From the NCBI GenBank assembly GCA_964432465.1, contig CAYSNI010000069.1, forward strand, positions 1 through 30,517: DNA of 30,517 nucleotides, in the 5' to 3' direction. The stretch is from an uncultured Candidatus Saccharibacteria bacterium (lineage in GTDB: Bacteria; Patescibacteriota; Minisyncoccia; UBA6257; WO2-44-18). Below, in pieces: positions 16,523 through 26,927 of this stretch. The position numbers and the translations under genes are program-made. Positions within the stretch are counted from its first letter, which is position 1. Every line of letters starts with the position of its first letter. The notes under the pieces were generated by a model, which was not told where the DNA came from, ran no database searches, and saw nothing but the letters and a program-made list of their open reading frames with translations.

Positions 16523-17494
16523 ATGCTTATCGACGATGTCATTATCAGAATAGCGGCGGGCAACGGCGGCAAAGGCGCCGTCGCTTTTGAGAAGAACAAA
16601 TTCGCGATCGGCCCAACCGGCGCCCGCGGTGGCGATGGCGGCAACATCTATTTTGAGGCGGTGTCTGATATCTCCGCGCTGAGTAAATTTCGTCATAAAA
16701 AAGAATGGGCGGCAACTAACGGGCAGGATGGCCGGAGCCAGTACCGTGACGGTAAAGTTGGCTCTGATCTGGTTCTGAAAGTCCCGGCAGGCACCGTAAT
16801 CCATAATCTCGACACTCGCTACAGTGAAGAATTAGTAAAAGGCGGCGACCGCATCCTAGTCGCTAAAGGCGGCCGCGGCGGTAAGGGCAACTTTTTCTTC
16901 CGCTCACCGATCAATACTAGCCCGGAAGAGTTTGAATTTGGTCAACCGGGCGATAAATTCAACTTGCGCTTAGAACTTAAATTAATCGCTGATGTCGGCT
17001 TAGTTGGTCTGCCAAACGCCGGAAAATCTAGCCTGATCAATGAACTCACGAAAGCCCAAGTCAAGGTAGCGAACTACCCCTTTACCACACTGGAACCGAA
17101 CCTAGGCACCTATGAGAATCTGATCATCGCGGATATTCCTGGCTTGATCGAGGGAGCCTCAAAGGGTAAGGGACTCGGCACTAAATTCCTCCGTCATATT
17201 GAACGCACGCGAGTAATTTTCCATTTGGTTTCCGCTGAATCGGAAAAACCAGTTAAGGATTATAAGACGATTAGAAAAGAGCTGGGCGCTCATAATCCGG
17301 AACTTTTAGAAAAAATTGAGCACATCCTCATCAGCAAGAGCGATATGGGCAACCCTAAAAAACTGACGAAGGAGATTGCCGCGCTAAAAAAACTAAATTC
17401 AAAAGTATTGCCTATCTCCATTCACGACTGGGATAGCCTTGAGAAAGTACGGAAGATTCTGGATAAGATCGCGAAAGAGAAGGGCGGCCGCTAG
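16523..17494 (+). CDS. obg: GTPase Obg (no C-terminal OCT domain)
   Basis: Gly-rich Obg fold, VGLPNAGKSS, YPFTTLEPNLG, DIPGLIEGAS, FLRHIER. Confidence 0.96.
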   Translation: MLIDDVIIRIAAGNGGKGAVAFEKNKFAIGPTGARGGDGGNIYFEAVSDISALSKFRHKKEWAATNGQDGRSQYRDGKVGSDLVLKVPAGTVIHNLDTRYSEELVKGGDRILVAKGGRGGKGNFFFRSPINTSPEEFEFGQPGDKFNLRLELKLIADVGLVGLPNAGKSSLINELTKAQVKVANYPFTTLEPNLGTYENLIIADIPGLIEGASKGKGLGTKFLRHIERTRVIFHLVSAESEKPVKDYKTIRKELGAHNPELLEKIEHILISKSDMGNPKKLTKEIAALKKLNSKVLPISIHDWDSLEKVRKILDKIAKEKGGR

Positions 17495-18081
17495 CGGTAC
17501 AGCTTATTCTTTCGGATGTACTCCGCCACGCTTTTCGCCAAAAATGCATCCGCCTTGCCGCCCGCGGCGATTATCTCTCTTATTTTCGTGCTCGAAATAT
17601 CGCGTGCGGATATATCACGCGGGATTACCGTGCTATGCGGCGGAAGCTCCTCCGGCATTTCAAATCCCGGCCGTTCGAGAATTATAAATTTTCCTGTTTC
17701 GAAAAGCTCCTTTCCGTTCACCCAGGTATTTTTAATGGTCGCGGCCGAATCTGCTCCCACGACGAAACAAAATTCGGAATCCGGATAATACGTTTCCAGT
17801 TCCTGCTTGGTGGCATAGGTTGTGGTAAGTCCCGGACGCTTTATTTCGAGATCCGACACGCTCACTGGAATTTTCGGTAACGGAAATAATTCGCGAACCA
17901 TTGCCCGGAGCATTTCCACGCGGTGCATACCGTCGGTTCCGACAACCTTGTCCCTGCGGTCAGCCGATGGCATCACCCATATTTCATCAGCCGAAAAGTT
18001 ATCGAGGACCAGTTCGATCGCTTTCGCGTGTCCGATATGGGGCGGATTGAAAGCGCCGCCGAAGATCACGATTTTTTCCAT
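17491..18081 (-). CDS. nadD: nicotinate-nucleotide adenylyltransferase
   Basis: FGGAFNPPHIGH, FVVGADS, ISSTKIR. Confidence 0.93.
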   Translation of the reverse strand: MEKIVIFGGAFNPPHIGHAKAIELVLDNFSADEIWVMPSADRRDKVVGTDGMHRVEMLRAMVRELFPLPKIPVSVSDLEIKRPGLTTTYATKQELETYYPDSEFCFVVGADSAATIKNTWVNGKELFETGKFIILERPGFEMPEELPPHSTVIPRDISARDISSTKIREIIAAGGKADAFLAKSVAEYIRKNKLYR

Positions 18082-18121: not shown

Positions 18122-19279
18122 TTACGTAATCAACATCATACGCTCGATGCCGAGCTTAGCCTTCTCGGCGATTGAACGCTGGATATGGACCGTAGTATCG
18201 GTTTCAAGAGGATTCTTGGGATCACAGCAGTCATCGCAAAGCAGGATCTCCAGGCGGTCCGTATTCAGCGAATCAAGCAGCTTTTCGAAGATATTCGCCT
18301 TCATGAAGCCGCACTCCGCCCGCTGCGAAACCGGGATGAAGGTTTTCTCCGGCAGTTCTTTCCGCAGCCGGTACACCATTCCCTTCTCGGTCGCCACGAT
18401 GAATTTCTTCACCGGCGAGATTCGAGCCCGCTCGACCATCTGCTCGGTCGAAAGAAAGAAAGCGCGCTGGTGAGGAATGATCCCCTGCTGGATTTTCAGC
18501 ATGCAGAGCGAGGCGCATCCACATTCCGGATGAATCATCAGCTCCGCGTCAGGGTTCTCAATGAGCGCCACATCAGCCGCGTCCATGCCGATCATCTCGT
18601 GCACGTAACAGCAGGCGCTCCATTCACCCTTCCTCTTTTCATATACCTCGATCAGGTCCTCCGGTACCCCCTGCTCCACCGCCTTTGCCTTCATGACGTA
18701 GCCAAGGAACTTATCAGGGAGAACAAGGATCTTCTTACCGGGATACATCTTCGCCGCGGCGACAATGATCTTGTCGGTATTCCGGGAGGTGGAGATGAAG
18801 TCACTAATCGACTTCGTGTAGGCGTCGCTGTTGATGTAGGTCACCAGCACGCCGCCGGGGTTGTTGCGCTTCCACTCTTCGATCCATTCATGATCGGTAC
18901 CGAAAACAAGCGAACAGCCGAGCGCCGCGGGCTTGTCGGGTACGAATACCCGTGTCGCGTCGCCGTTGATGATCTTCGCCGTCGCTCCCATGAAGTACAC
19001 GCTTTGAAAATCAATCCGTTCGGCGCCGATCGCCTTCGCGTGAAGGCTTAGTCCGAGCGAATCCCCGACTTTATCGGCAATCTCATGAAACTCCGGATAG
19101 AGATAGTTATGAGCGAAGATCTTTGCTTTCTTTTCTTTGGCTCTCGCCTGGATCTCGATCGCCATCTCGGCAAGTCCGTAACATCTTTCAAGCGTGTACC
19201 GCCCCGGATACAAATCTCCGGCGTACTGGTTGAAAAGCGTATACCAACGCATGGCAAGATGATCAACGACTGTATTCAC
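18122..19279 (-). CDS. nadA: quinolinate synthase A
   Basis: AHNY, GDSL, YIN, HPEC, FIVATE; three 4Fe-4S Cys (GCSL, CYVH, CGFMK); GTG start with SD AAGGAG. Confidence 0.92.
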   Translation of the reverse strand: MNTVVDHLAMRWYTLFNQYAGDLYPGRYTLERCYGLAEMAIEIQARAKEKKAKIFAHNYLYPEFHEIADKVGDSLGLSLHAKAIGAERIDFQSVYFMGATAKIINGDATRVFVPDKPAALGCSLVFGTDHEWIEEWKRNNPGGVLVTYINSDAYTKSISDFISTSRNTDKIIVAAAKMYPGKKILVLPDKFLGYVMKAKAVEQGVPEDLIEVYEKRKGEWSACCYVHEMIGMDAADVALIENPDAELMIHPECGCASLCMLKIQQGIIPHQRAFFLSTEQMVERARISPVKKFIVATEKGMVYRLRKELPEKTFIPVSQRAECGFMKANIFEKLLDSLNTDRLEILLCDDCCDPKNPLETDTTVHIQRSIAEKAKLGIERMMLIT

Positions 19280-19295
19280 ATACGCACTCCTTAAT

Positions 19296-19336
19296 GTTCT
19301 GGCCGTATTTTACCATTATTACGGCAAATAAAAAAG
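19296..19336 (-). promoter_or_regulatory. internal promoter block A (extended -10 TGGTAAAAT) for nadA
   Basis: 19/20 identical to 20536-20555; directly after a terminator. Confidence 0.65.
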
Positions 19337-19354
19337 AGGCGGTTAAGCCTCTTT
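19333..19354 (-). terminator. intrinsic terminator after NDT-NUDIX gene
   Basis: AAAGAGGC/GCCTCTTT stem, T run on minus strand. Confidence 0.7.
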
Positions 19355-20506
19355 AAGCGCTGAAAGAATCATGCCGATCGTACTCCAATCCACAAGATCT
19401 TTCGCGAAGATCTCGCGGATCGTGCAGACCTGCGTATATACCCGTTCGCCGGTCGGATCGCTCATATCGGCGCCATGCACCTCGCCGACCTGACTCTTAA
19501 ACCAGTTCATTTCTTCATCGGTCAGCTCCGCGGAAAAAAGATTGCAACAGTGGGTCAGAAGGGTCGCGGCAAGCTGCCGGGGGCCATGAGACTTGAGACG
19601 CTCCTTGCCGATCACGAAACCGGTTTCCTCATGGACTTCTTCCACCGCCACGTCGAGCGGATCCACGGCGGGATTCGGATTCGATCCGGCGGGAAGCTCC
19701 CAGACGAAACATTCATTGTTGCGCGCCGAGCTACGGAACTCCCGTCCGATCACAACTTCGTAATCAAGCAGAGTCGGTCCCCGGCGATACAGCACCACCG
19801 CGGAAGTATCCAGACGACCGATCACCGGTTCGTTGGTCTTCATGCGACCTTCGCCGAAAATCCTAATCCGGGGATGAATCATCCATATATAGACGCGTTC
19901 CTTCCTGTCGCCGACACGGAACGTCGCTTTAAGTTCAACTCCTTCAAGGACATGGCCCGCACGATGCTGCGCCTGATACCAGGACTGGAACGCCTTCGTT
20001 CTCCAGACAAAAAGCGGCACCTGTCGGGCTCCGCCCGAACGATGTGAACCGTCACCGAGGAATCTCAGGGCAGCGTCGACCGTCCCTTCAAGCGTATTCG
20101 CCTGCAGGACAAATTCTTTGCCGGCACAATGCTTCATGTAGCCTGTCTTTGGCGCATCATCCGGACAGCCGAATACCATCCAGCCCGAATGCCACAGCCA
20201 GCCGAATTCGATATTAGTGGTGAACGCGGGCATCTTTTCAAGCTCGCGGGGAACCCAGAACAGCGCACAATCGGAATGATTAAACGCGCTATGTTCCCAC
20301 TCGATCTGGCCGTCCTCGCCGCACTGGGCGGAACCGGCCCGGTCTTCCGGGACAAACACCACGCCGTCATAGCCCCGCTCTTTCAGAATCTCCAGAGCAC
20401 GCGGCCGCCATGACCCGACATCGTTCCTGCGGGGCGTCGGCCCCGCCAAAAAAATAGACCGGCTGAACTGCTCCGGCATCGGCTCGCCCGCGTAGACCAT
20501 CTGCAT
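19343..20506 (-). CDS. nucleoside 2-deoxyribosyltransferase-like domain fused to NUDIX hydrolase
   Basis: N-term IFLAGPTPR, VFVPEDR, QIEWE, FWVPR, TTNIEFG; C-term WELPAGS..VAVEEVHEETGF; SD AAGGAGG. Confidence 0.85.
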   Translation of the reverse strand: MQMVYAGEPMPEQFSRSIFLAGPTPRRNDVGSWRPRALEILKERGYDGVVFVPEDRAGSAQCGEDGQIEWEHSAFNHSDCALFWVPRELEKMPAFTTNIEFGWLWHSGWMVFGCPDDAPKTGYMKHCAGKEFVLQANTLEGTVDAALRFLGDGSHRSGGARQVPLFVWRTKAFQSWYQAQHRAGHVLEGVELKATFRVGDRKERVYIWMIHPRIRIFGEGRMKTNEPVIGRLDTSAVVLYRRGPTLLDYEVVIGREFRSSARNNECFVWELPAGSNPNPAVDPLDVAVEEVHEETGFVIGKERLKSHGPRQLAATLLTHCCNLFSAELTDEEMNWFKSQVGEVHGADMSDPTGERVYTQVCTIREIFAKDLVDWSTIGMILSALKEA

Positions 20507-20535: not shown

Positions 20536-20575
20536 GTTCTGGGCGTATTTTACCAGAAAAATCGGGAAATAAAAA
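20536..20575 (-). promoter_or_regulatory. internal promoter block B (extended -10 TGGTAAAAT) for NDT-NUDIX gene
   Basis: Near-copy of block A. Confidence 0.65.
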
Positions 20576-20601
20576 GGCCTTCCAACAATGTTGGAGGGCC
20601 T
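20575..20601 (-). terminator. intrinsic terminator after pncB
   Basis: AGGCCTTCCAACA/TGTTGGAGGGCCT stem, T run on minus strand. Confidence 0.7.
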
Positions 20602-20605
20602 GTGT

Positions 20606-21850
20606 TTAAACCGGGATCAAACCGATCACCTGCCGATAGCGGGTGACCTCGTGGAGGTCGCCCATCGCCTTGGCGGGGTCATCGCTGAGCTTCACCGTGG
20701 AACGTCCGTTGACACGCGACGCTTTCACGACGATCTCCGCGGTGGGAAGTCCGAGATCGTTGGTAAGGTTGGTACCGACACCGAACGTGTGTCCGAGTCT
20801 GCCCTGGAAATGCGCGTGGAGCGCCACCATCCGGGCGGGATCCAGCTTATCGCTGAACACTGTCAGTTTATCTTTCGGATTCTCGTCGTAGCGGCGATAC
20901 CAGTTGATCATCTTCTCGCCATAGCTGAATGGATCCCCGGAATCTTGCCGGGTCCCTTTCCAGAGCTTCGCGACATCCTGATTCGCCGCGCGCAGAAAGA
21001 AGTCGGTGGTAAAGGTATCGGTCAGCGCGATCGAAAGACCACGGCCGTACATACTCCACCAGCCGTTCAGAACTTCGCGCTGAGCCTCAATCAGCACATC
21101 TTCGCTCCGGGTATCGGGATGCGCCTTCGCAAACGCGAGCGCGGCGATGACCATCGGAAGTTCGTGCGCCGACGTACCCATAGGTATGAGATCAACGTCC
21201 TTCGCGAACAGCACATTGGACGTGCCGAGCAGGATACCGGGTAGCTCCTCCCTCATCACCTCAACGACGTACTGCTGCCACGCCCGGCTAAAACGCCGAC
21301 GAGTGCCGAAGTCGCTGAACGTGAGGAAAGGCTGATGCCGGAATACGCAGATCTTCTCAAGGAGATTTTGAACACCCCGCGCGAAGACCGCCTCCTGCTC
21401 GAAGCGGGACTTTTTCCGCAAGAGTGCCCGGGAATAAAGTTCGCAGATGATCGACATTGCCAGCGTTTCCCAATACATGACCTTCGGCCACGGACCGGTA
21501 AACTCCAGACGGTAATCGTCGCCCTCTCTGATCAGTTTGTAGGGAGGAAGTTCGAGATCCCGCAAGAACTGGAGATAATCATCCTGGAACATCTTGTCGC
21601 CGTATTCGTGCGTGCCCCGCAGATAATGATATTCGCTGTTTCTCAGTCTGAGCTTCATCACATGATCAAGCTCGCGTCTCAAATCCTCTTCCGAAAAATA
21701 CTGCGCGAAAGGGATCCGTGCGCGATTGATCAGACTGAAAGTGACTTCCACATCACGATAGCGCCGGAATACCAGCTGGCCCATCGTGAATTTGTAGAAA
21801 TCGGTATCGAGCAAAGAGTTGATGATCGGTTCGTCGGAAAGCAGTTTCAA
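20606..21850 (-). CDS. pncB: nicotinate phosphoribosyltransferase
   Basis: LLDTDFYKFTM, DFGTRRRFS, GTSNV, GTSAHE, RQDSGDP, FGVGTNLTND, VKLSD; TTG start overlapping pncA stop. Confidence 0.95.
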   Translation of the reverse strand: MKLLSDEPIINSLLDTDFYKFTMGQLVFRRYRDVEVTFSLINRARIPFAQYFSEEDLRRELDHVMKLRLRNSEYHYLRGTHEYGDKMFQDDYLQFLRDLELPPYKLIREGDDYRLEFTGPWPKVMYWETLAMSIICELYSRALLRKKSRFEQEAVFARGVQNLLEKICVFRHQPFLTFSDFGTRRRFSRAWQQYVVEVMREELPGILLGTSNVLFAKDVDLIPMGTSAHELPMVIAALAFAKAHPDTRSEDVLIEAQREVLNGWWSMYGRGLSIALTDTFTTDFFLRAANQDVAKLWKGTRQDSGDPFSYGEKMINWYRRYDENPKDKLTVFSDKLDPARMVALHAHFQGRLGHTFGVGTNLTNDLGLPTAEIVVKASRVNGRSTVKLSDDPAKAMGDLHEVTRYRQVIGLIPV

Positions 21851-22485
21851 GAAACGCCTCCTTCCAAGACTTCATCAGTGCTGGAAATTACCACGCCGGC
21901 GGTCTCCATTTCAACGAGTGCGTCTTCGCCGTCGCTGGGATTGATATTGACCGCGCGGCAGGCGTCTTCGAGTAGGATGGCCTGTTGGCCATACTTCACC
22001 GCGTCGAGCGCCGTCGCCTTCACGCAATGATCTGTCGCAAGGCCGCCGATGTACATCTTCCTCACTTTCAGCTGGACCAGGCGATCGTTGAGCGAGGTGC
22101 CGAAGTGATGACCATCGAAAGCCGAGTAGCCGTCATCTATCGTACCTTCACCCTTAGTGATGATGTACAGCCAGCGATATGCGCTGGCTCCGGGTACCTG
22201 CAGATCCCTATGAAACTCGGCTCCGCGAGTGTACTGCACCGCGTGCTCCGGCCATTTGCCGCCATACAACGCGAAATGCTTCGTCACCGGCGGATGCCAG
22301 TCCCTCGAGATCATGATCGCCCAGTTATTCTGCATGGCATGAAGGATCATGCGATTCAGCGGAGCCATCACCTGGTCGCCTTCCACGACCGCAAGCGAGC
22401 CGCCCGGGCAAAAACAGTTCTGCGGATCCACGATCATCAATGCCGTATCGGACTGAAAGACCAGCGCCGGCCCTGAATTGAACAT
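21847..22485 (-). CDS. pncA: nicotinamidase
   Basis: IVDPQNCF, RDWH, WPEH, TKG, YSAF, GLATDHCV; Asp-Lys-Cys triad and metal ligands present. Confidence 0.92.
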   Translation of the reverse strand: MFNSGPALVFQSDTALMIVDPQNCFCPGGSLAVVEGDQVMAPLNRMILHAMQNNWAIMISRDWHPPVTKHFALYGGKWPEHAVQYTRGAEFHRDLQVPGASAYRWLYIITKGEGTIDDGYSAFDGHHFGTSLNDRLVQLKVRKMYIGGLATDHCVKATALDAVKYGQQAILLEDACRAVNINPSDGEDALVEMETAGVVISSTDEVLEGGVS

Positions 22486-22494
22486 GCAGCCTCC

Positions 22495-23370
22495 TTAAAG
22501 GATCGTTGCCCCTTCGTACTGCCAATCGAACTTGAGCTTGCCGTCGGGGAAGAAGATAAGATTTCTCATCTCTTCCGCGTTCGGCTGTACCGTCAGGCAT
22601 TCGTTCAGGCAGAGATTCTGCCCAAAGAGGTCAAAGACCTCCGCGCCATGCGCGAGCACCCGAAGACGGCACCCTGAATTAGTGACGAATTCCCGTATCT
22701 CTTTTCTTTGTTCAACTTTGAGATGATGCTCATTCGTCCATTCCCAGGCCTCGCGGTTCGACATCACCACCGGTTTGTTCACCGGGGTAAATGTGAGCTG
22801 GTCCACCTGGTGCGTCTTCGCGAACGCCACAAGATTCTTCAGCTTTTCAGCACTATCCACGAATCCGTTTGCGCCGATGCATGTCAGACGGACTGAAAGC
22901 CCTATTTCGTGAAGTTTCTTGATCAGTTCCGGAAGGTCGATATATTCCTTCTTATAAGGAAGGTAGACTTCGCGATTCTTCTCCGGTTCATAATGCACGA
23001 TAGAAATCGCGATTGTCGTCATACCAAGATTGCACCAGCTCCTCAGATAAGGATCATATTTCTCCGACCGCTCCGCGAATTTGATCCCGTTCGTCTGGAT
23101 CTCAATCAGTGGAAATTCATATCTCCGCATCTCTTCAAGATATCGGGTGATCTGATCCGGAAACAGCGTCGGTTCACCTTTTCCCGTGAACATCGCCGTA
23201 ATCGCGTTCTGAGCCTTCGCCAACCTGCACGCGATATGAAATCGGTGCCAATTGACCGTCGGTTCCTCGAGTAGCACGCCTTGCGGCGGGGTCATCTTGG
23301 ATACACAAAACGGACACCTCGCGTTACACGCCTCGCTGCCCGCCAGAATGCTGAATGTCTCGACTTTCAA
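22495..23370 (-). CDS. radical SAM enzyme of unknown function
   Basis: CNARCPFC (CX3CX2C), GKGEPTL, QTNG; 291 aa, no SPASM Cys set; TTG start with SD GAGGAGG. Confidence 0.9.
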   Translation of the reverse strand: MKVETFSILAGSEACNARCPFCVSKMTPPQGVLLEEPTVNWHRFHIACRLAKAQNAITAMFTGKGEPTLFPDQITRYLEEMRRYEFPLIEIQTNGIKFAERSEKYDPYLRSWCNLGMTTIAISIVHYEPEKNREVYLPYKKEYIDLPELIKKLHEIGLSVRLTCIGANGFVDSAEKLKNLVAFAKTHQVDQLTFTPVNKPVVMSNREAWEWTNEHHLKVEQRKEIREFVTNSGCRLRVLAHGAEVFDLFGQNLCLNECLTVQPNAEEMRNLIFFPDGKLKFDWQYEGATIL

Positions 23371-23424: not shown

Positions 23425-24105
23425 TTAAAAGAATCTTTTCAACTCTATGGGCCTCTGCTCAACAAATACATAGAGCTGAGCAGGCCTGTGCTGGGCGCCG
23501 CCGAGCTTTTGACTCGTCGGCTTTATCAGTCCGAGCGCCACAAATTTCTTCCGAAAGTTTCTTTTATCGAGCTTCTTTCCCCAAATCGCTTCATAGGTTG
23601 CCTGGAGCTGACCAAGCGTGAACTTTTTAGGCAGGAGCGAAAAGACGGCGTTGGTATACTCCAACTTAGAACGTAAACGCCGGAGCGCATAGTTGACGAT
23701 CCTCTTGTGATCGAACGCAAGCAGCGGCAGCTTATTCACCGGGAGCAATGTCGGCGCCTGCAGATCCTTGGCGGATTCAAAGACAAGCTTCTCTCTGGGC
23801 ATCAGCGCGAAATAGCTCACCGAGACCGCCGGACCGCGGGGATCCCGTCCGGAGCTGTCGAACGTATACAGCTGCTCGATATACGCGTTCTTCACGCCGG
23901 TTTTGTCGGCAAGCACGCGAAGCGCGCCCTTCTCGGTCGTTTCGTTCTGAAAAAGAAAACCTCCCGGCAATGCCCACACGCCCTCAAACGGCGGGCGGGC
24001 GCGGCGGATCAGGAGCACTTTTAATTCGCCTTGATCGATCGTCAGAATTACGACGTCTACCGTCACGGCCGGAGAGAAGTAAAATTTGTCGGTATGTTTC
24101 TTCAT
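23425..24105 (-). CDS. nrtR: NrtR family transcriptional regulator (NUDIX-like + winged helix)
   Basis: VTVDVVI, WALPGGF, degenerate NUDIX box (RVLADK), EQLYTF..GRDPR, LAFDH, FTLGQLQ, DKRNFRKK, RPAQLY; start ATG 24105. Confidence 0.9.
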   Translation of the reverse strand: MKKHTDKFYFSPAVTVDVVILTIDQGELKVLLIRRARPPFEGVWALPGGFLFQNETTEKGALRVLADKTGVKNAYIEQLYTFDSSGRDPRGPAVSVSYFALMPREKLVFESAKDLQAPTLLPVNKLPLLAFDHKRIVNYALRRLRSKLEYTNAVFSLLPKKFTLGQLQATYEAIWGKKLDKRNFRKKFVALGLIKPTSQKLGGAQHRPAQLYVFVEQRPIELKRFF

Positions 24106-24109
24106 ATTA

Positions 24110-26056
24110 TTATTCGAGTTCTTTAAGCCAGGCATCCACGGCGACATCCGACGGCATGCGCCAATCGCCCCTCGGTGAAAGCGCTACCGACCCAACTTTT
24201 GGACCGTCCGACATTACCGAGCGCTTCCACTGGTTGCGGAAAAATCGCCCGACAAAAAGCCTCAACCATTTTTTAATTACCGCGCGGGGATATTTCTTTC
24301 CGAACGCCTGCTCCGCGAGAAACAGAATCTTTTTCGGCGCGCTCGCCCATCGCACGAAATGGTAGAGAAAAAAATCATGTAATTCATACGGGCCGATAAT
24401 ATCCTCGGTTTTCTGATCAATATCCTTTTTGCCCGCCCGCACAAGCTCCGGGGAGATCGGCGTCGCAATGATATCGGCAAGCACTTTCTTTGCCTTGCTG
24501 AAATCCTTTTGTGACCGCACCCACTGCACCAGATACTTCACCAGCGTCTTTGGAATGCCCGAATTCACGCAATAGTGCGAAATATGGTCACCGGTAAAGG
24601 TATTCCAGCCGAGTGCTATCTCCGAAAGATCACCCGTGCCTACCACGAGGCCGTTGATCTGGTTCGATTTATTCATAAGTACCAGCGTTCGATAGCGGGC
24701 CTGCACGTTTTCAAAGGTAATATCCTGCGTCTTTCCATTGTGTCCGATGTCTTTGAGATTCTGCGAGGCGCCTTCGGTAATATCAATAGTTTCCAGCGTC
24801 ACGCCCAGCGCTTCCGCAAGTTTGATCGCGTTGGACTTGGTACGCTTCGTAGTCGCAAATCCCGGCATGGTGTAGGCATGAATATTGTTACGAGGCAGAC
24901 CAAGTAATTCACAGGCCCGCACGGCTACCAGGAGCGCGAGCGTTGAATCCAGTCCGCCGGAAAGTCCGATGATCGGTTTTTCTTTATCCGCGTGCTCCAT
25001 GCGCTTCGCAAGTCCCGCCGCCTGAATCGCAAAGATTTCCTGCGCGCGCTTATCACGCTCGGATTCGTTGGAGGGTACAAAAGGATTCTGCGTGAGAGAA
25101 CGTTCCAGCTTCTCCGGGCTCGCGATGTCGGTATCAAATGAAATATTCCTGAACTCTTTCCTGGGCAACTCGTGCACGCCTTCCCCAAAGCTCGTCATAC
25201 GTTCCCGATCGGTCTTTATATGATGAAGGTCGAGATCGGCGTAGATGATCTGGCTTTCTCTGTCGAATCGCTCAGATTCTTTGAGAAGACCCCCGTTTTC
25301 CCCGATCAGGGCGTGACCGCTGAATACCACGTCAGTAGTGGATTCATGTACGCCACAGGACGCGTAGATGTAGCCAGCCACCGTACGGGCTGACTGCTGA
25401 GAAACCAGCTCGCGACGGTAATCCGCCTTCCCGATTAATTCGTTTGAAGCCGAAAGATTCGCGAGCACCGTCGCTCCCGCAACCGCCTTGAATGAACTGG
25501 GCGGCATCGGCATCCAAACGTCCTCGCAAATTTCCACACCAAGCGCGAATGCCGGCAGCTTTTCGGACTGAAAAATAAGATCCGCGCCGATCGGTACTTT
25601 CTTCCCGAGAATAGTTATTTCTTTCGCCAAAAGATCGCGCGAAGACGCGAACCACCGTTCCTCGTAAAATTCCTTGTATCCCGGGATGTAGGTCTTGGGC
25701 ACGAGACCAAGAATCTTCCCACCGGAAATTACCGCCGCCATATTGAATAATTTCCCCTCGCATGCGAGCGGGAGTCCCACTAATACCACCGCTTTTACGG
25801 TTTTGGAGGCATCCACGATCTCCTGTAAACTGATAAGAGATTCCTCCTGGAGCAGTTCCTGATGGAAAAGATCCCCGAGCGTATATCCAGTAATTGAAAG
25901 CTCAGGGAATACGATAAGTCCGGTCTGCTTCGCCGCCGCGACCTTTATCAGCTTAATGATCTCCTTCCCGTTCTCTTCCGGCTTCCCAAGCCAAAGCCTG
26001 GGTACCACCGCCGCTACCCTCATCAATCCAAATCTGGACAATTGGATAGTGTTCAT
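24110..26056 (-). CDS. nadE: glutamine-dependent NAD+ synthetase
   Basis: Nitrilase domain E-K-C (FPEL, VPK, EICED) plus SGGLDS, ENVQAR, GTGDLSE, ISPEL, IIGPYELHDFF. Confidence 0.96.
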   Translation of the reverse strand: MNTIQLSRFGLMRVAAVVPRLWLGKPEENGKEIIKLIKVAAAKQTGLIVFPELSITGYTLGDLFHQELLQEESLISLQEIVDASKTVKAVVLVGLPLACEGKLFNMAAVISGGKILGLVPKTYIPGYKEFYEERWFASSRDLLAKEITILGKKVPIGADLIFQSEKLPAFALGVEICEDVWMPMPPSSFKAVAGATVLANLSASNELIGKADYRRELVSQQSARTVAGYIYASCGVHESTTDVVFSGHALIGENGGLLKESERFDRESQIIYADLDLHHIKTDRERMTSFGEGVHELPRKEFRNISFDTDIASPEKLERSLTQNPFVPSNESERDKRAQEIFAIQAAGLAKRMEHADKEKPIIGLSGGLDSTLALLVAVRACELLGLPRNNIHAYTMPGFATTKRTKSNAIKLAEALGVTLETIDITEGASQNLKDIGHNGKTQDITFENVQARYRTLVLMNKSNQINGLVVGTGDLSEIALGWNTFTGDHISHYCVNSGIPKTLVKYLVQWVRSQKDFSKAKKVLADIIATPISPELVRAGKKDIDQKTEDIIGPYELHDFFLYHFVRWASAPKKILFLAEQAFGKKYPRAVIKKWLRLFVGRFFRNQWKRSVMSDGPKVGSVALSPRGDWRMPSDVAVDAWLKELE

Positions 26057-26065: not shown

Positions 26066-26094
26066 ACAGTAACGTATGATAAAAAAATCGTCAA
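26066..26094 (-). promoter_or_regulatory. promoter of nadE-nrtR operon
   Basis: TTGACG-17 nt-TACTGT, 9 nt before ATG; -35 lies inside the nadK CDS. Confidence 0.6.
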
Positions 26095-26927
26095 CCCCTT
26101 CCAGCGTCAATATCTTCTACCGTCCGGATAACCCGGCGGCAAAAGCCTGGGCGGAAAAGATCACGCTCTGGCTTCATAAGCACTATCCGAAAGTAACCAC
26201 GACCGAGAAAAGACCAGACGCGGTTATCGTCCTCGGCGGCGACGGTACCATTCTCGAAGCCGCCAGCCGCTATCAGCGTTCAAATCCCGTCATCCTCGGA
26301 CTAAACCTCGGCCATGTTGGATTCTTGGCGTCCGTCCGTGAAGAGGCGAAATTTATTAATGCACTGGCTAAATTTTTCTCCGGTAAATACTGGCTGGTGG
26401 ACAGGATGATGCTGCAGGCCAGCGTGTGGCGAAAAGGAAAGAATATTTTTAAAACAAATTCACTGAATGACGTCGCTATCCAGAATCCGATCGGTATGGT
26501 GGAGCTGGAAGCCAGCATCGAAGACCACCCCCTGCAATATATCCGTGGCACCGGCGTGCTCGTGGCTACCGCCACCGGCTCCACCGCGCATAATCTTTCC
26601 GCCCATGGCCCGATCGTGATGCCCAATATCGAATGCCTGATCCTGACCGAACTTTTTGATCACAGCATTCCCACTCCCAGTCTGATCATCGATAAAGACC
26701 GGATAATTTCAATGAAGATCCTGTTCTTCCGGAAACGCGGCATTCTTTCGGTCAGTAAGACCGGCAAACCGGCTGATCTTCTTCTGATATCGGGAGACAG
26801 CACCGTCTTCCCTCTTGAGATCGGCGATATCGTGAAGATTCGGCGCTCAAAAATGCTCGTCCGGTTCGCGGAATTGGAAAAGCACTATTTCTTTAAGAGC
26901 TTGCAGGAGAAGTTTTCGTTTCGGTAA
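26076..26927 (+). CDS. nadK: NAD kinase family protein
   Basis: LGGDGTIL, GLNLGHVGFL, LND, TATGSTAHNLSAHGP. Confidence 0.88.
   Translation: MIKKSSTPSSVNIFYRPDNPAAKAWAEKITLWLHKHYPKVTTTEKRPDAVIVLGGDGTILEAASRYQRSNPVILGLNLGHVGFLASVREEAKFINALAKFFSGKYWLVDRMMLQASVWRKGKNIFKTNSLNDVAIQNPIGMVELEASIEDHPLQYIRGTGVLVATATGSTAHNLSAHGPIVMPNIECLILTELFDHSIPTPSLIIDKDRIISMKILFFRKRGILSVSKTGKPADLLLISGDSTVFPLEIGDIVKIRRSKMLVRFAELEKHYFFKSLQEKFSFR

Follow-up and report, generated by a model that had tools for sequence, protein, structure and literature searches.

Synthesis of cofactor precursors is typical of radical S-adenosylmethionine (SAM) enzymes, among them ThiC, ThiH, BioB, MoaA, CofGH and MqnCE, and to our knowledge nicotinamide adenine dinucleotide (NAD) is among the few major cofactors for whose synthesis, salvage or repair no radical SAM step is known. 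In the aminosugar pairs BtrN/BtrS and DesII/DesI a fold-type I pyridoxal phosphate (PLP) enzyme transaminates the sugar carbonyl that its radical SAM partner produces or consumes, and in class III ribonucleotide reductases an extra active-site cysteine decides the external reductant (formate vs thioredoxin) of a radical reaction on ribose. Thi4 and LarE consume NAD or nicotinate adenine dinucleotide with the help of a sacrificial cysteine or an external sulfur source, and in thiamin synthesis the radical SAM enzyme ThiH substitutes for the imine-making flavin oxidase ThiO. Here we analyzed a radical SAM gene at positions 22495..23370 of a 30,517-nucleotide stretch of DNA from an uncultured Candidatus Saccharibacteria bacterium; the whole stretch is called the window, and rSAM denotes the gene, its protein and their homologues. 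An earlier note, made from the sequence of the window alone, had pointed to this gene as coupled to the nicotinamide salvage genes pncA and pncB downstream of the NAD regulator nrtR. We found that rSAM recurs in NAD(P) gene clusters of many lineages and that one of its residues, at position 258, tracks the presence of a PLP enzyme gene directly downstream.

A large family of compact radical SAM proteins

Three features of the window define the gene and its cysteines:

22495..23370, minus strand: radical SAM gene, 291 aa, TTG start, stand-alone Cys258 type (list of open reading frames, Pfam, homologue alignment)
23305..23328, minus strand: codons of C15-N-A-R-C19-P-F-C22, the [4Fe-4S] motif of radical SAM enzymes (window reading; invariant in the alignment)
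22597..22611, minus strand: codons of C254-L-N-E-C258, with C254 near-universal in the family and C258 tracking absence of the PLP gene (alignment)

Searching 5.8 billion proteins clustered at 90% identity, we found 990 relatives of rSAM. The 120 matches listed are 55-68% identical to the window protein over its full length and are named only 'radical SAM protein' or, automatically, 'MoaA'; the nearest of those listed (67-68%) come from Parcubacteria/Patescibacteria assemblies. A profile search of the 50% representatives gave 387 clusters at E<1e-30. Nineteen aligned homologues, likewise 55-68% identical across the full length, showed a mean column identity of 72%, and judged from this alignment the gene is real and its conservation well beyond chance. 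The TTG start, with AGGAGG 7 nt upstream, is supported because the homologues align from residue 1. The protein matched Pfam PF04055 (Radical_SAM) at 36.5 bits (gathering cutoff 29.5) and passed no other Pfam or NCBIfam family, the best weak NCBIfam matches, Tes, MoaA, viperin and NrdG, scoring 27-37 bits vs cutoffs of 131-450. The homologues lie outside the characterised families, no curated family cutoff being passed. Sequence searches of the PDB with the single sequence and with a profile returned nothing significant.

The CX3CX2C motif, read as intact in that note, was found at codons 23328-23305, and its C15, C19 and C22 are invariant in 20 homologues, as are K64-G65-E66-P67 of the GGE-type SAM motif within 'TGKGEPT'. 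The C-terminal RNLIFFPDGKL..W element singled out there is present as R269-N-L-I-F-F-P-D-G-K-L-K-F-D-W283 and is largely invariant (R269, I272, F273, P275, D276, G277 and W283 in the 20 homologues). Proteins of the family are about 290 aa long and share the motifs CNARCPFC-x-SKMT, TGKGEPT, E-x-QTNG, GQN-x-C-L-x-x-[C/S/A]-L-T and R-x-LIFFPDG-x-x-x-x-W, all of them carried by the window protein with one deviation, K278, which is mostly H elsewhere. An auxiliary Fe-S cluster is predicted to be absent because, outside the cluster motif, only C254 is near-universally conserved; a cluster built from C48, C254 and C258 was ruled out, C48 not being conserved, and the window protein shows neither a Cys-rich C-terminal motif of SPASM/twitch type nor a SPASM Pfam match. 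The proposal of a compact, 291-aa protein with a single cluster agrees with this distribution of cysteines.

The AlphaFold2 model (mean pLDDT, the predicted local distance difference test, 84.6) has a partial barrel of alternating strands and helices and a beta-rich C-terminal extension. Foldseek gave 169 PDB matches at E<=0.001, the 50 listed all being radical SAM enzymes; the best over the full length, among the matches listed, were MoaA, with a template modelling (TM) score of 0.72, and a fungal viperin-like protein (~0.65), at 12-15% identity. The likeness to viperin and MoaA that the earlier note had suggested therefore stands at the level of the fold (TM 0.65-0.72) and falls at the level of sequence. 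From these comparisons, rSAM is a compact single-cluster enzyme of a large undescribed radical SAM family. It is a new family in a known superfamily, one without a known role in the NAD pathway; in the full-text literature outside subscription journals, neither the family nor any NAD-salvage radical SAM enzyme was described.

Linkage of rSAM to NAD(P) genes

We compared rSAM loci from 80 species genomes of GTDB, 8 viral contigs and 80 metagenome loci. NAD genes were counted by tblastn with the NAD proteins of the window and with cluster representatives, within 8 kb in genomes and 6 kb in metagenomes, where the 48 loci of 6 kb or more were used. Of the 80 genome loci, 48 had one or more NAD genes near rSAM and 34 had three or more, and the long metagenome loci replicated this (36/48 and 27/48, respectively). 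rSAM thus belongs regularly to NAD(P) gene clusters across phyla and domains, and the linkage to nad genes surmised from the window alone extends well beyond it.

Neighbouring open reading frames (ORFs) were clustered de novo and the representatives of the clusters compared with Pfam and NCBIfam. NAD kinase (NadK) was the commonest neighbour family (35 loci); nicotinamidase (PncA) was found in 26 loci, NrtR or another Nudix protein in 25, NAD synthetase in its long (18 loci) and short (8 loci) forms, nicotinate phosphoribosyltransferase (NAPRT) of three types in 17, 7 and 7 loci, and NadA and NadD in 11 loci each. Other recurring neighbours were NadR-type ribosylnicotinamide kinase (RNK), PnuC, ADP-ribosylglycohydrolase (ARH), NadM-Nudix, a nucleoside deoxyribosyltransferase-like (NDT-like) protein and a DAO-family flavin adenine dinucleotide (FAD) oxidoreductase. 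The loci come from the Candidate Phyla Radiation (CPR), from DPANN (Woese-, Nano- and Aenigmarchaeota), Obscuribacterales, Melainabacteria, Planctomycetota, Acidobacteriota, Chloroflexota and Gammaproteobacteria, and from viral contigs. Gene orders vary between lineages and stop/start overlaps with NAD genes are frequent: the typical DPANN order is NAPRT > pncA > nadE > rSAM > PLP gene > nadD > Nudix > ARH, and in Obscuribacterales RNK is followed by nicotinamide mononucleotide adenylyltransferase (NMNAT), NadK and rSAM, with a stop/start overlap. In large genomes rSAM, with or without its PLP partner, often sits amid unrelated genes.

Viral contigs carry similar modules. One of 190 kb has the order NAPRT > PncA-like > 165-aa ORF > rSAM > NMNAT, flanked by DNA and RNA ligase genes, and one of 66 kb holds pncA, nadE, rSAM, nrtR, pncB and nadD. 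On a 316-kb viral contig (L087, 8001-8867) tblastn recovered a full-length rSAM of which the standard-code ORF covers only 177 aa; the frame thus appears to be broken by a stop codon, and this giant phage-like contig may use an alternative genetic code. Among the 50,697 deposited phage genomes of INPHARED we found no rSAM homologue.

Several further genes were seen in these clusters. A gene fusing an NDT-like domain (PF15891) to a Nudix-like domain (NDT-Nudix) falls in no curated family and is restricted to 7 Parcubacteria loci; it directly follows rSAM in four related ones, and in two of the Parcubacteria loci (L001 and L015) the order is rSAM > NDT-Nudix > pncA > pncB. NDT-Nudix is plausibly a pyrophosphatase acting on NAD or nicotinamide mononucleotide (NMN) and an N-glycosidase freeing nicotinamide, and this gene order plausibly mirrors the order of degradative salvage. 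A DUF3343 'putative Se/S carrier-like' domain (PF11823) is fused to NadR-type ribosylnicotinamide kinase in one locus (L040, 3347-4735) and lies upstream of rSAM in 15/15 Obscuribacterales-type loci, as similar fusions in the relatives of L040 and otherwise ~1.5 kb away. Genes of SAM-dependent methyltransferases lie on the strand opposite to rSAM within five DPANN NAD clusters (~310 aa in L021, L034 and L035, ~500 aa in L022 and L032), mostly adjoining an nrtR-like gene. In one Chloroflexota lineage the rSAM-PLP pair is preceded, at a distance of 3 nt, by the gene of a patatin-like phospholipase (L081, 6592-7998; L082, 93-1499); upstream, L081 has yet another radical SAM gene, whose product includes an HHH domain, and this context was not seen elsewhere. 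A defence-system reading of this arrangement was rejected, as the patatin gene is upstream in one Chloroflexota lineage only and does not recur.

Residue 258 tracks a downstream PLP gene

In 33 genome loci rSAM is followed by the gene of a PLP enzyme of ~345 aa, usually with a 4-nt overlap; the partner is present in ~40% of the loci, always immediately downstream in these 33, and neither the window nor the Parcubacteria loci have it. This divergent fold-type I enzyme carries the lysine motif SFSKPYG, the HisC-like motifs GSSEGI, SNPSAR-GN and D-x-A-Y and two conserved C-terminal Arg. The best matches in a profile search of the PDB were histidinol-phosphate aminotransferase (E=8e-10) and the threonine-phosphate decarboxylase CobD (E=3e-7), no NCBIfam cutoff was reached, and the model (pLDDT 92) resembles class I/II aminotransferases generally (TM 0.55-0.64). 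The enzyme has 612 relatives, and one natural protein of 666 aa (P0156) is a fusion of rSAM with it. Two assignments were set aside: cysteine desulfurase or C-S lyase, which neither the profile nor the fold matches support, and NDT-Nudix as a stand-in for the PLP enzyme, since DPANN clusters hold separate NDT-like and Nudix genes in addition to the PLP gene. In one locus (L069, 9793-10644) a second radical SAM paralogue, 28% identical and without the GQN-x-C-L motif, comes right after the PLP gene (rSAM-PLP-rSAM2).

An alignment of rSAM from 84 loci was split by presence of the PLP gene. Position 258 was Cys in 51/51 loci without the PLP gene and Ser (26) or Ala (6) in 32/32 loci with it, and it was the sole fully discriminating column, the runner-up showing an overlap of 0.33. 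The metagenome loci that extend far enough past the rSAM gene to be judged replicated the split: Cys was found in 43 loci lacking the partner and in 1 that has it, Ser in 23 that have it and in 0 that lack it. Pooled, Cys258 occurs 94 times without and once with the PLP gene, and Ser or Ala 55 times with and 0 times without; the fusion protein has Ser at this position. The lone exception (L158, 6001-6870) has Cys258 and yet a PLP gene downstream, and perhaps represents a transition between the two types. Proteins with Cys258 are scattered over several parts of a neighbour-joining tree, with L030, L037 and L046, for example, lying inside Ser/Ala clades of DPANN; on this tree the switch at residue 258 is one that occurred several times.

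Given this anticorrelation, Cys258 and the PLP enzyme appear functionally interchangeable, and the second thiol, four residues past C254, appears from the alignment to replace the contribution of the PLP enzyme. By its sequence the window protein is of the stand-alone C254-x3-C258 type. The equivalence of dithiol and PLP enzyme may instead lie in sulfur supply, in reductant or in the handling of a by-product; among ten unidentified neighbours of Cys258-type genes that were checked, none was thioredoxin-like. Neither the PLP partner nor the switch could be seen by the earlier note, because both emerge only by comparing loci.

Layout of the probable window operon

Around rSAM the window holds the following features, given in the direction of rSAM transcription:

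26076..26927, plus strand: nadK, NAD kinase, divergent from nadE (Pfam)
24110..26056, minus strand: nadE, glutamine-dependent NAD synthetase, at the head of the same-strand run (Pfam)
23425..24147, minus strand: nrtR, Nudix and winged-helix NAD regulator, 54 nt upstream of rSAM (Pfam, NCBIfam)
22483..22497, minus strand: rSAM stop TAA, overlapping Shine-Dalgarno AAGGAGG and pncA ATG, translational coupling (window reading)
21847..22485, minus strand: pncA, nicotinamidase (Pfam, NCBIfam)
20606..21850, minus strand: pncB, nicotinate phosphoribosyltransferase, 419 bits vs a cutoff of 379 (NCBIfam)
20581..20595, minus strand: first terminator-like hairpin 3' of rSAM, after pncB (terminator scan)
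19343..20506, minus strand: NDT-Nudix, nucleoside deoxyribosyltransferase-like and Nudix-like fusion, 387 aa (Pfam, NCBIfam)
18122..19279, minus strand: nadA, quinolinate synthase (Pfam, NCBIfam)
17491..18081, minus strand: nadD-type nucleotide adenylyltransferase (Pfam)

The identities of NrtR (Nudix and NrtR_WHD), PncA, PncB, NadA, NadD, NadE and NadK were upheld by Pfam and NCBIfam; the remaining genes are ordinary cell-envelope and replication genes, and tblastn with the E. coli proteins found no nadB or nadC in the 30.5-kb window. The signals that the earlier note had described at the gene borders were all recovered. The stop codon of rSAM (TAA, 22497-22495) runs into GGAGG, so that the Shine-Dalgarno sequence of pncA overlaps it, and the pncA ATG follows at 22485, 6 nt past GGAGG; pncA and pncB overlap by TTGA at 21850-21847; and the scan of the window detected no terminator-like site between nrtR, rSAM and pncA, the first ones on the minus strand following pncB (20595-20581), NDT-Nudix (19354-19333) and nadA (18114-18091). 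The transcript is probably nadE-nrtR-rSAM-pncA-pncB, ending near the hairpin at 20581-20595.

With the listed ATG of nrtR, the 3' end of nadE and the 5' end of nrtR overlap by 38 nt (24110-24147), and a start at the second Met (residue 15) would abolish this overlap. A 20-bp motif, TGGTAAAATACGSCCAGAAC, occurs twice on the minus strand with 0 copies expected by chance: at 19296-19315, ~40 nt upstream of nadA, and at 20536-20555, ~30 nt upstream of NDT-Nudix. It contains an extended -10 element, TGGTAAAAT, and its second copy a palindrome, TTCTGG-N10-CCAGAA; these elements would suit a promoter that is overlapped by an operator, perhaps one bound by NrtR.

A possible role in pyridine nucleotide recycling

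rSAM co-occurs with every step of the Preiss-Handler and riboside-salvage pathways. Occurring beside all known NAD steps, it therefore stands in for neither NadB nor NadC nor, apparently, any other of them, and its function is additional. We propose, at a probability of roughly one in three, that rSAM recycles or repairs pyridine nucleotides by radical chemistry on their ribose part and that the reaction is finished by the thiol pair or by the PLP enzyme. Three arguments make a pyridine nucleotide or an ADP-ribose-type compound the probable substrate: the full-length fold neighbours, MoaA and viperin, act on nucleoside triphosphates; the smallest modules (NMNAT-NadK-rSAM and NAPRT-PncA-rSAM-NMNAT) share only steps at the nucleotide level; and the PLP partner groups with HisC and CobD, in a branch of enzymes that bind phosphate esters. 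The [4Fe-4S] cluster would cleave SAM, and the 5'-deoxyadenosyl radical would abstract hydrogen from the ribose, or the ribose-phosphate moiety, of NAD(P)(H), of nicotinate mononucleotide or NMN, of ADP-ribose, or of a damaged or dead-end form of these. The thiols of Cys254 and Cys258 would then complete the reaction by donating a hydrogen atom or electrons, or by way of a short-lived C-S adduct, much as ribonucleotide reductases do; in the Ser/Ala258 enzymes an unfinished carbonyl-type intermediate would pass to the PLP enzyme. The usable product, a free pyridine base or a normal nucleotide, would re-enter the route PncA-PncB-NadD-NadE, and rSAM would be derepressed with the NrtR operon once ADP-ribose signals consumption of NAD. 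Two further ideas of the earlier note, modification of a nucleotide and repair of a damaged pyridine nucleotide, may each still hold.

A number of observations weigh against this proposal. The nucleotide substrate is argued from gene context and from fold resemblance at 13-15% identity alone, and the Foldseek E-values of MoaA and viperin are near those of SuiB, GDGT-MAS and HydE. The NDT-like, LOG-like and Nudix hydrolases of the clusters already free pyridine bases, which leaves the need for a radical step unexplained, and we found no single mechanism that gives the same product from a dithiol and from an aminotransferase-type enzyme. By tblastn, 32 of the 80 genome loci, mostly in large genomes, have no NAD gene within 8 kb, although about 5 of them hold a divergent NadK-like gene caught only by protein clustering. 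The spacing of the genes is the only ground for assuming co-transcription and NrtR control.

A new input of pyridine rings is an unlikely alternative, yet one with arguments of its own. Here rSAM, with or without the PLP enzyme, would make nicotinate or nicotinamide for NAPRT or PncA from a decorated pyridine (N-alkylated nicotinate or nicotinamide) or from an amino-acid-derived precursor, a fourth source beside de novo synthesis, the Preiss-Handler route and riboside salvage. Queuine salvage, which uses a radical SAM lyase, is a precedent. Compact NrtR-controlled modules such as nrtR-NAPRT-rSAM-PLP (L067, L071) and NAPRT-rSAM-nadE (L078) adjoin a user of nicotinate, two of them (L067 and L078) without pncA, and the PLP partner is of aminotransferase or ACC (1-aminocyclopropane-1-carboxylate) synthase type, with a 'YRFCLTP' Arg that suggests an amino acid substrate because this Arg usually binds an alpha-carboxylate. 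However, in the RNK-NMNAT-NadK-rSAM modules of Obscuribacterales, which lack NAPRT, pncA and nadE, a product at the nicotinate level would find no use nearby, the formation of a pyridine ring from an amino acid by a lone Cys258-type enzyme is chemically unlikely, no neighbour such as a transporter or a demethylation helper points to a candidate substrate, and the fold neighbours take nucleotides and not amino acids.

Less probable again is a sulfur-dependent reaction on an NAD-derived molecule, in which Cys258 would carry sulfur or a persulfide, possibly as a sacrificial residue, and the PLP enzyme would supply sulfur from free cysteine to the Ser/Ala258 forms. The anticorrelation of Cys258 with the PLP gene does resemble the signature of suicide cysteine vs external sulfur in Thi4 and LarE, and the DUF3343 domain upstream of rSAM in all 15 Obscuribacterales-type loci would suit a sulfur carrier. 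But an auxiliary Fe-S cluster, present in all known sulfur-inserting radical SAM enzymes, is missing, the conserved cysteines of rSAM being just C15, C19, C22, C254 and C258; the PLP enzyme is HisC/CobD-like, without a persulfide loop, and neither a class V desulfurase nor a C-S lyase of MalY/PatB type; we know of no housekeeping NAD derivative that contains sulfur; and lar and thi genes are not nearby.

There is a small chance that rSAM has no role in NAD metabolism and is a housekeeping RNA- or protein-modifying enzyme, or a viperin-like antiviral one, that merely travels with NAD genes where genomes are streamlined. The 32 genome loci without a nearby NAD gene would fit, as would the heterogeneous neighbours in large genomes (patatin, another radical SAM protein, amidohydrolase, POR, ClpB, COX1) and weak pVip matches in PADLOC at 36 bits, for which no cutoff is given. 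Against this, bacteria, archaea and viral contigs all show the linkage, in varied gene orders and often with overlapping stop and start codons between rSAM and NAD genes, and chance hitch-hiking would not be rebuilt so often independently; pVip and viperin scores are far under the family cutoffs (30 vs 180), defence-island genes are not typical neighbours, and the 50,697 deposited phage genomes gave zero matches.

Finally, the first idea of the earlier note, that rSAM is an oxygen-independent source of iminoaspartate for NadA in place of NadB, as ThiH is to ThiO, is very improbable: the window and several relatives do pair nadA with rSAM without nadB, and the top Foldseek match of the PLP partner is an aspartate aminotransferase, but tblastn with E. 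coli NadB and NadC placed canonical genes in rSAM clusters of the PLP type (nadA-nadC-nadB in L055, nadB in L059) and of the Cys type (complete nadA, nadB and nadC in L122, nadC in L128), most loci are without nadA (present in merely 12/80 genome and 16/48 long metagenome loci and missing from several full-looking salvage clusters and viral modules), NCBIfam shows no similarity of rSAM to ThiH or HydG, and the DAO-family FAD oxidoreductase that adjoins nadA in L008, L010 and L020 is a better candidate for a NadB substitute or for a non-canonical supplier of a NadA substrate. This oxidoreductase, ~460 aa long, occurs in the NAD clusters of L008 (715-2085), L010 (789-2180), L020, L004, L005 and L012, and its best weak matches are L-2-hydroxyglutarate oxidase, malate:quinone oxidoreductase and type 2 glycerol-3-phosphate oxidase.

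The recycling or repair of pyridine nucleotides proposed above could be the first reaction of NAD(P) metabolism to be assigned to a radical SAM enzyme. In a broader and still tentative form, the enzyme would have a housekeeping function in CPR, DPANN, Melainabacteria and some giant phages, making an unmapped pyridine-nucleotide derivative, possibly sulfur-containing or ribose-modified, or reclaiming NAD from it, with completion by Cys254/Cys258 or by the HisC-like PLP enzyme. Conservation of rSAM in the NAD operons of very small genomes points to a reaction of NAD(P) homeostasis that has so far been missed: the gene is retained beside complete known pathways, and giant-phage-like contigs carry it with NAPRT, PncA and NMNAT. 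rSAM could thus bear on the acquisition of NAD by episymbionts and on the contest between phages and NAD-depleting defence. The rule at residue 258 gives a simple annotation guide for ~1000 orphan 'radical SAM' or 'MoaA' proteins, and the switch offers a direct experimental handle through site-directed swaps.

Comparison with known systems

The best structural match, among the matches listed, is MoaA, the GTP 3',8-cyclase (TM 0.71-0.72 over ~300 aligned columns), which shares with rSAM a motif of the CN-x-RC-x-x-C type and a partial TIM barrel with a C-terminal beta extension. The two are 13% identical, however, and rSAM scores 34.5 vs 284 for TIGR02666 and 26 vs 325 for TIGR02668; it lacks the three C-terminal cysteines of the second cluster and the C-terminal Gly-Gly, and molybdopterin genes are not nearby. 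Viperin and the prokaryotic viperins, which are nucleoside triphosphate 3'-deoxy-3',4'-didehydro synthases, are of like size with a single cluster (TM ~0.65), and their nucleotide substrate is a plausible parallel, but rSAM scores 30.2 against the cutoff of 180 for NF038283, the PDB profile match is at E ~0.1, and its context is one of housekeeping NAD genes and not of defence islands or kinases. rSAM has no similarity to ThiH, and it co-occurs with the enzyme that it would replace, NadB. Thi4 and LarE offer the same logic on an NAD-derived substrate, a protein with the cysteine being self-sufficient and one without it needing an external donor; neither is a radical SAM enzyme, and neither has a link to rSAM in sequence or context. 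The pairs BtrN/BtrS and DesII/DesI are matched here by overlapping rSAM and PLP genes and by one fusion, with the differences that BtrN has an auxiliary cluster and that their PLP enzymes are DegT-type while the partner of rSAM is HisC/CobD-like; we know of no radical SAM/aminotransferase pair in which one cysteine can take the place of the partner. For such a replacement the class III ribonucleotide reductases, with their unrelated glycyl radical enzyme fold and as an analogy only, provide a formal parallel to the alternation between Cys258 and the PLP enzyme.

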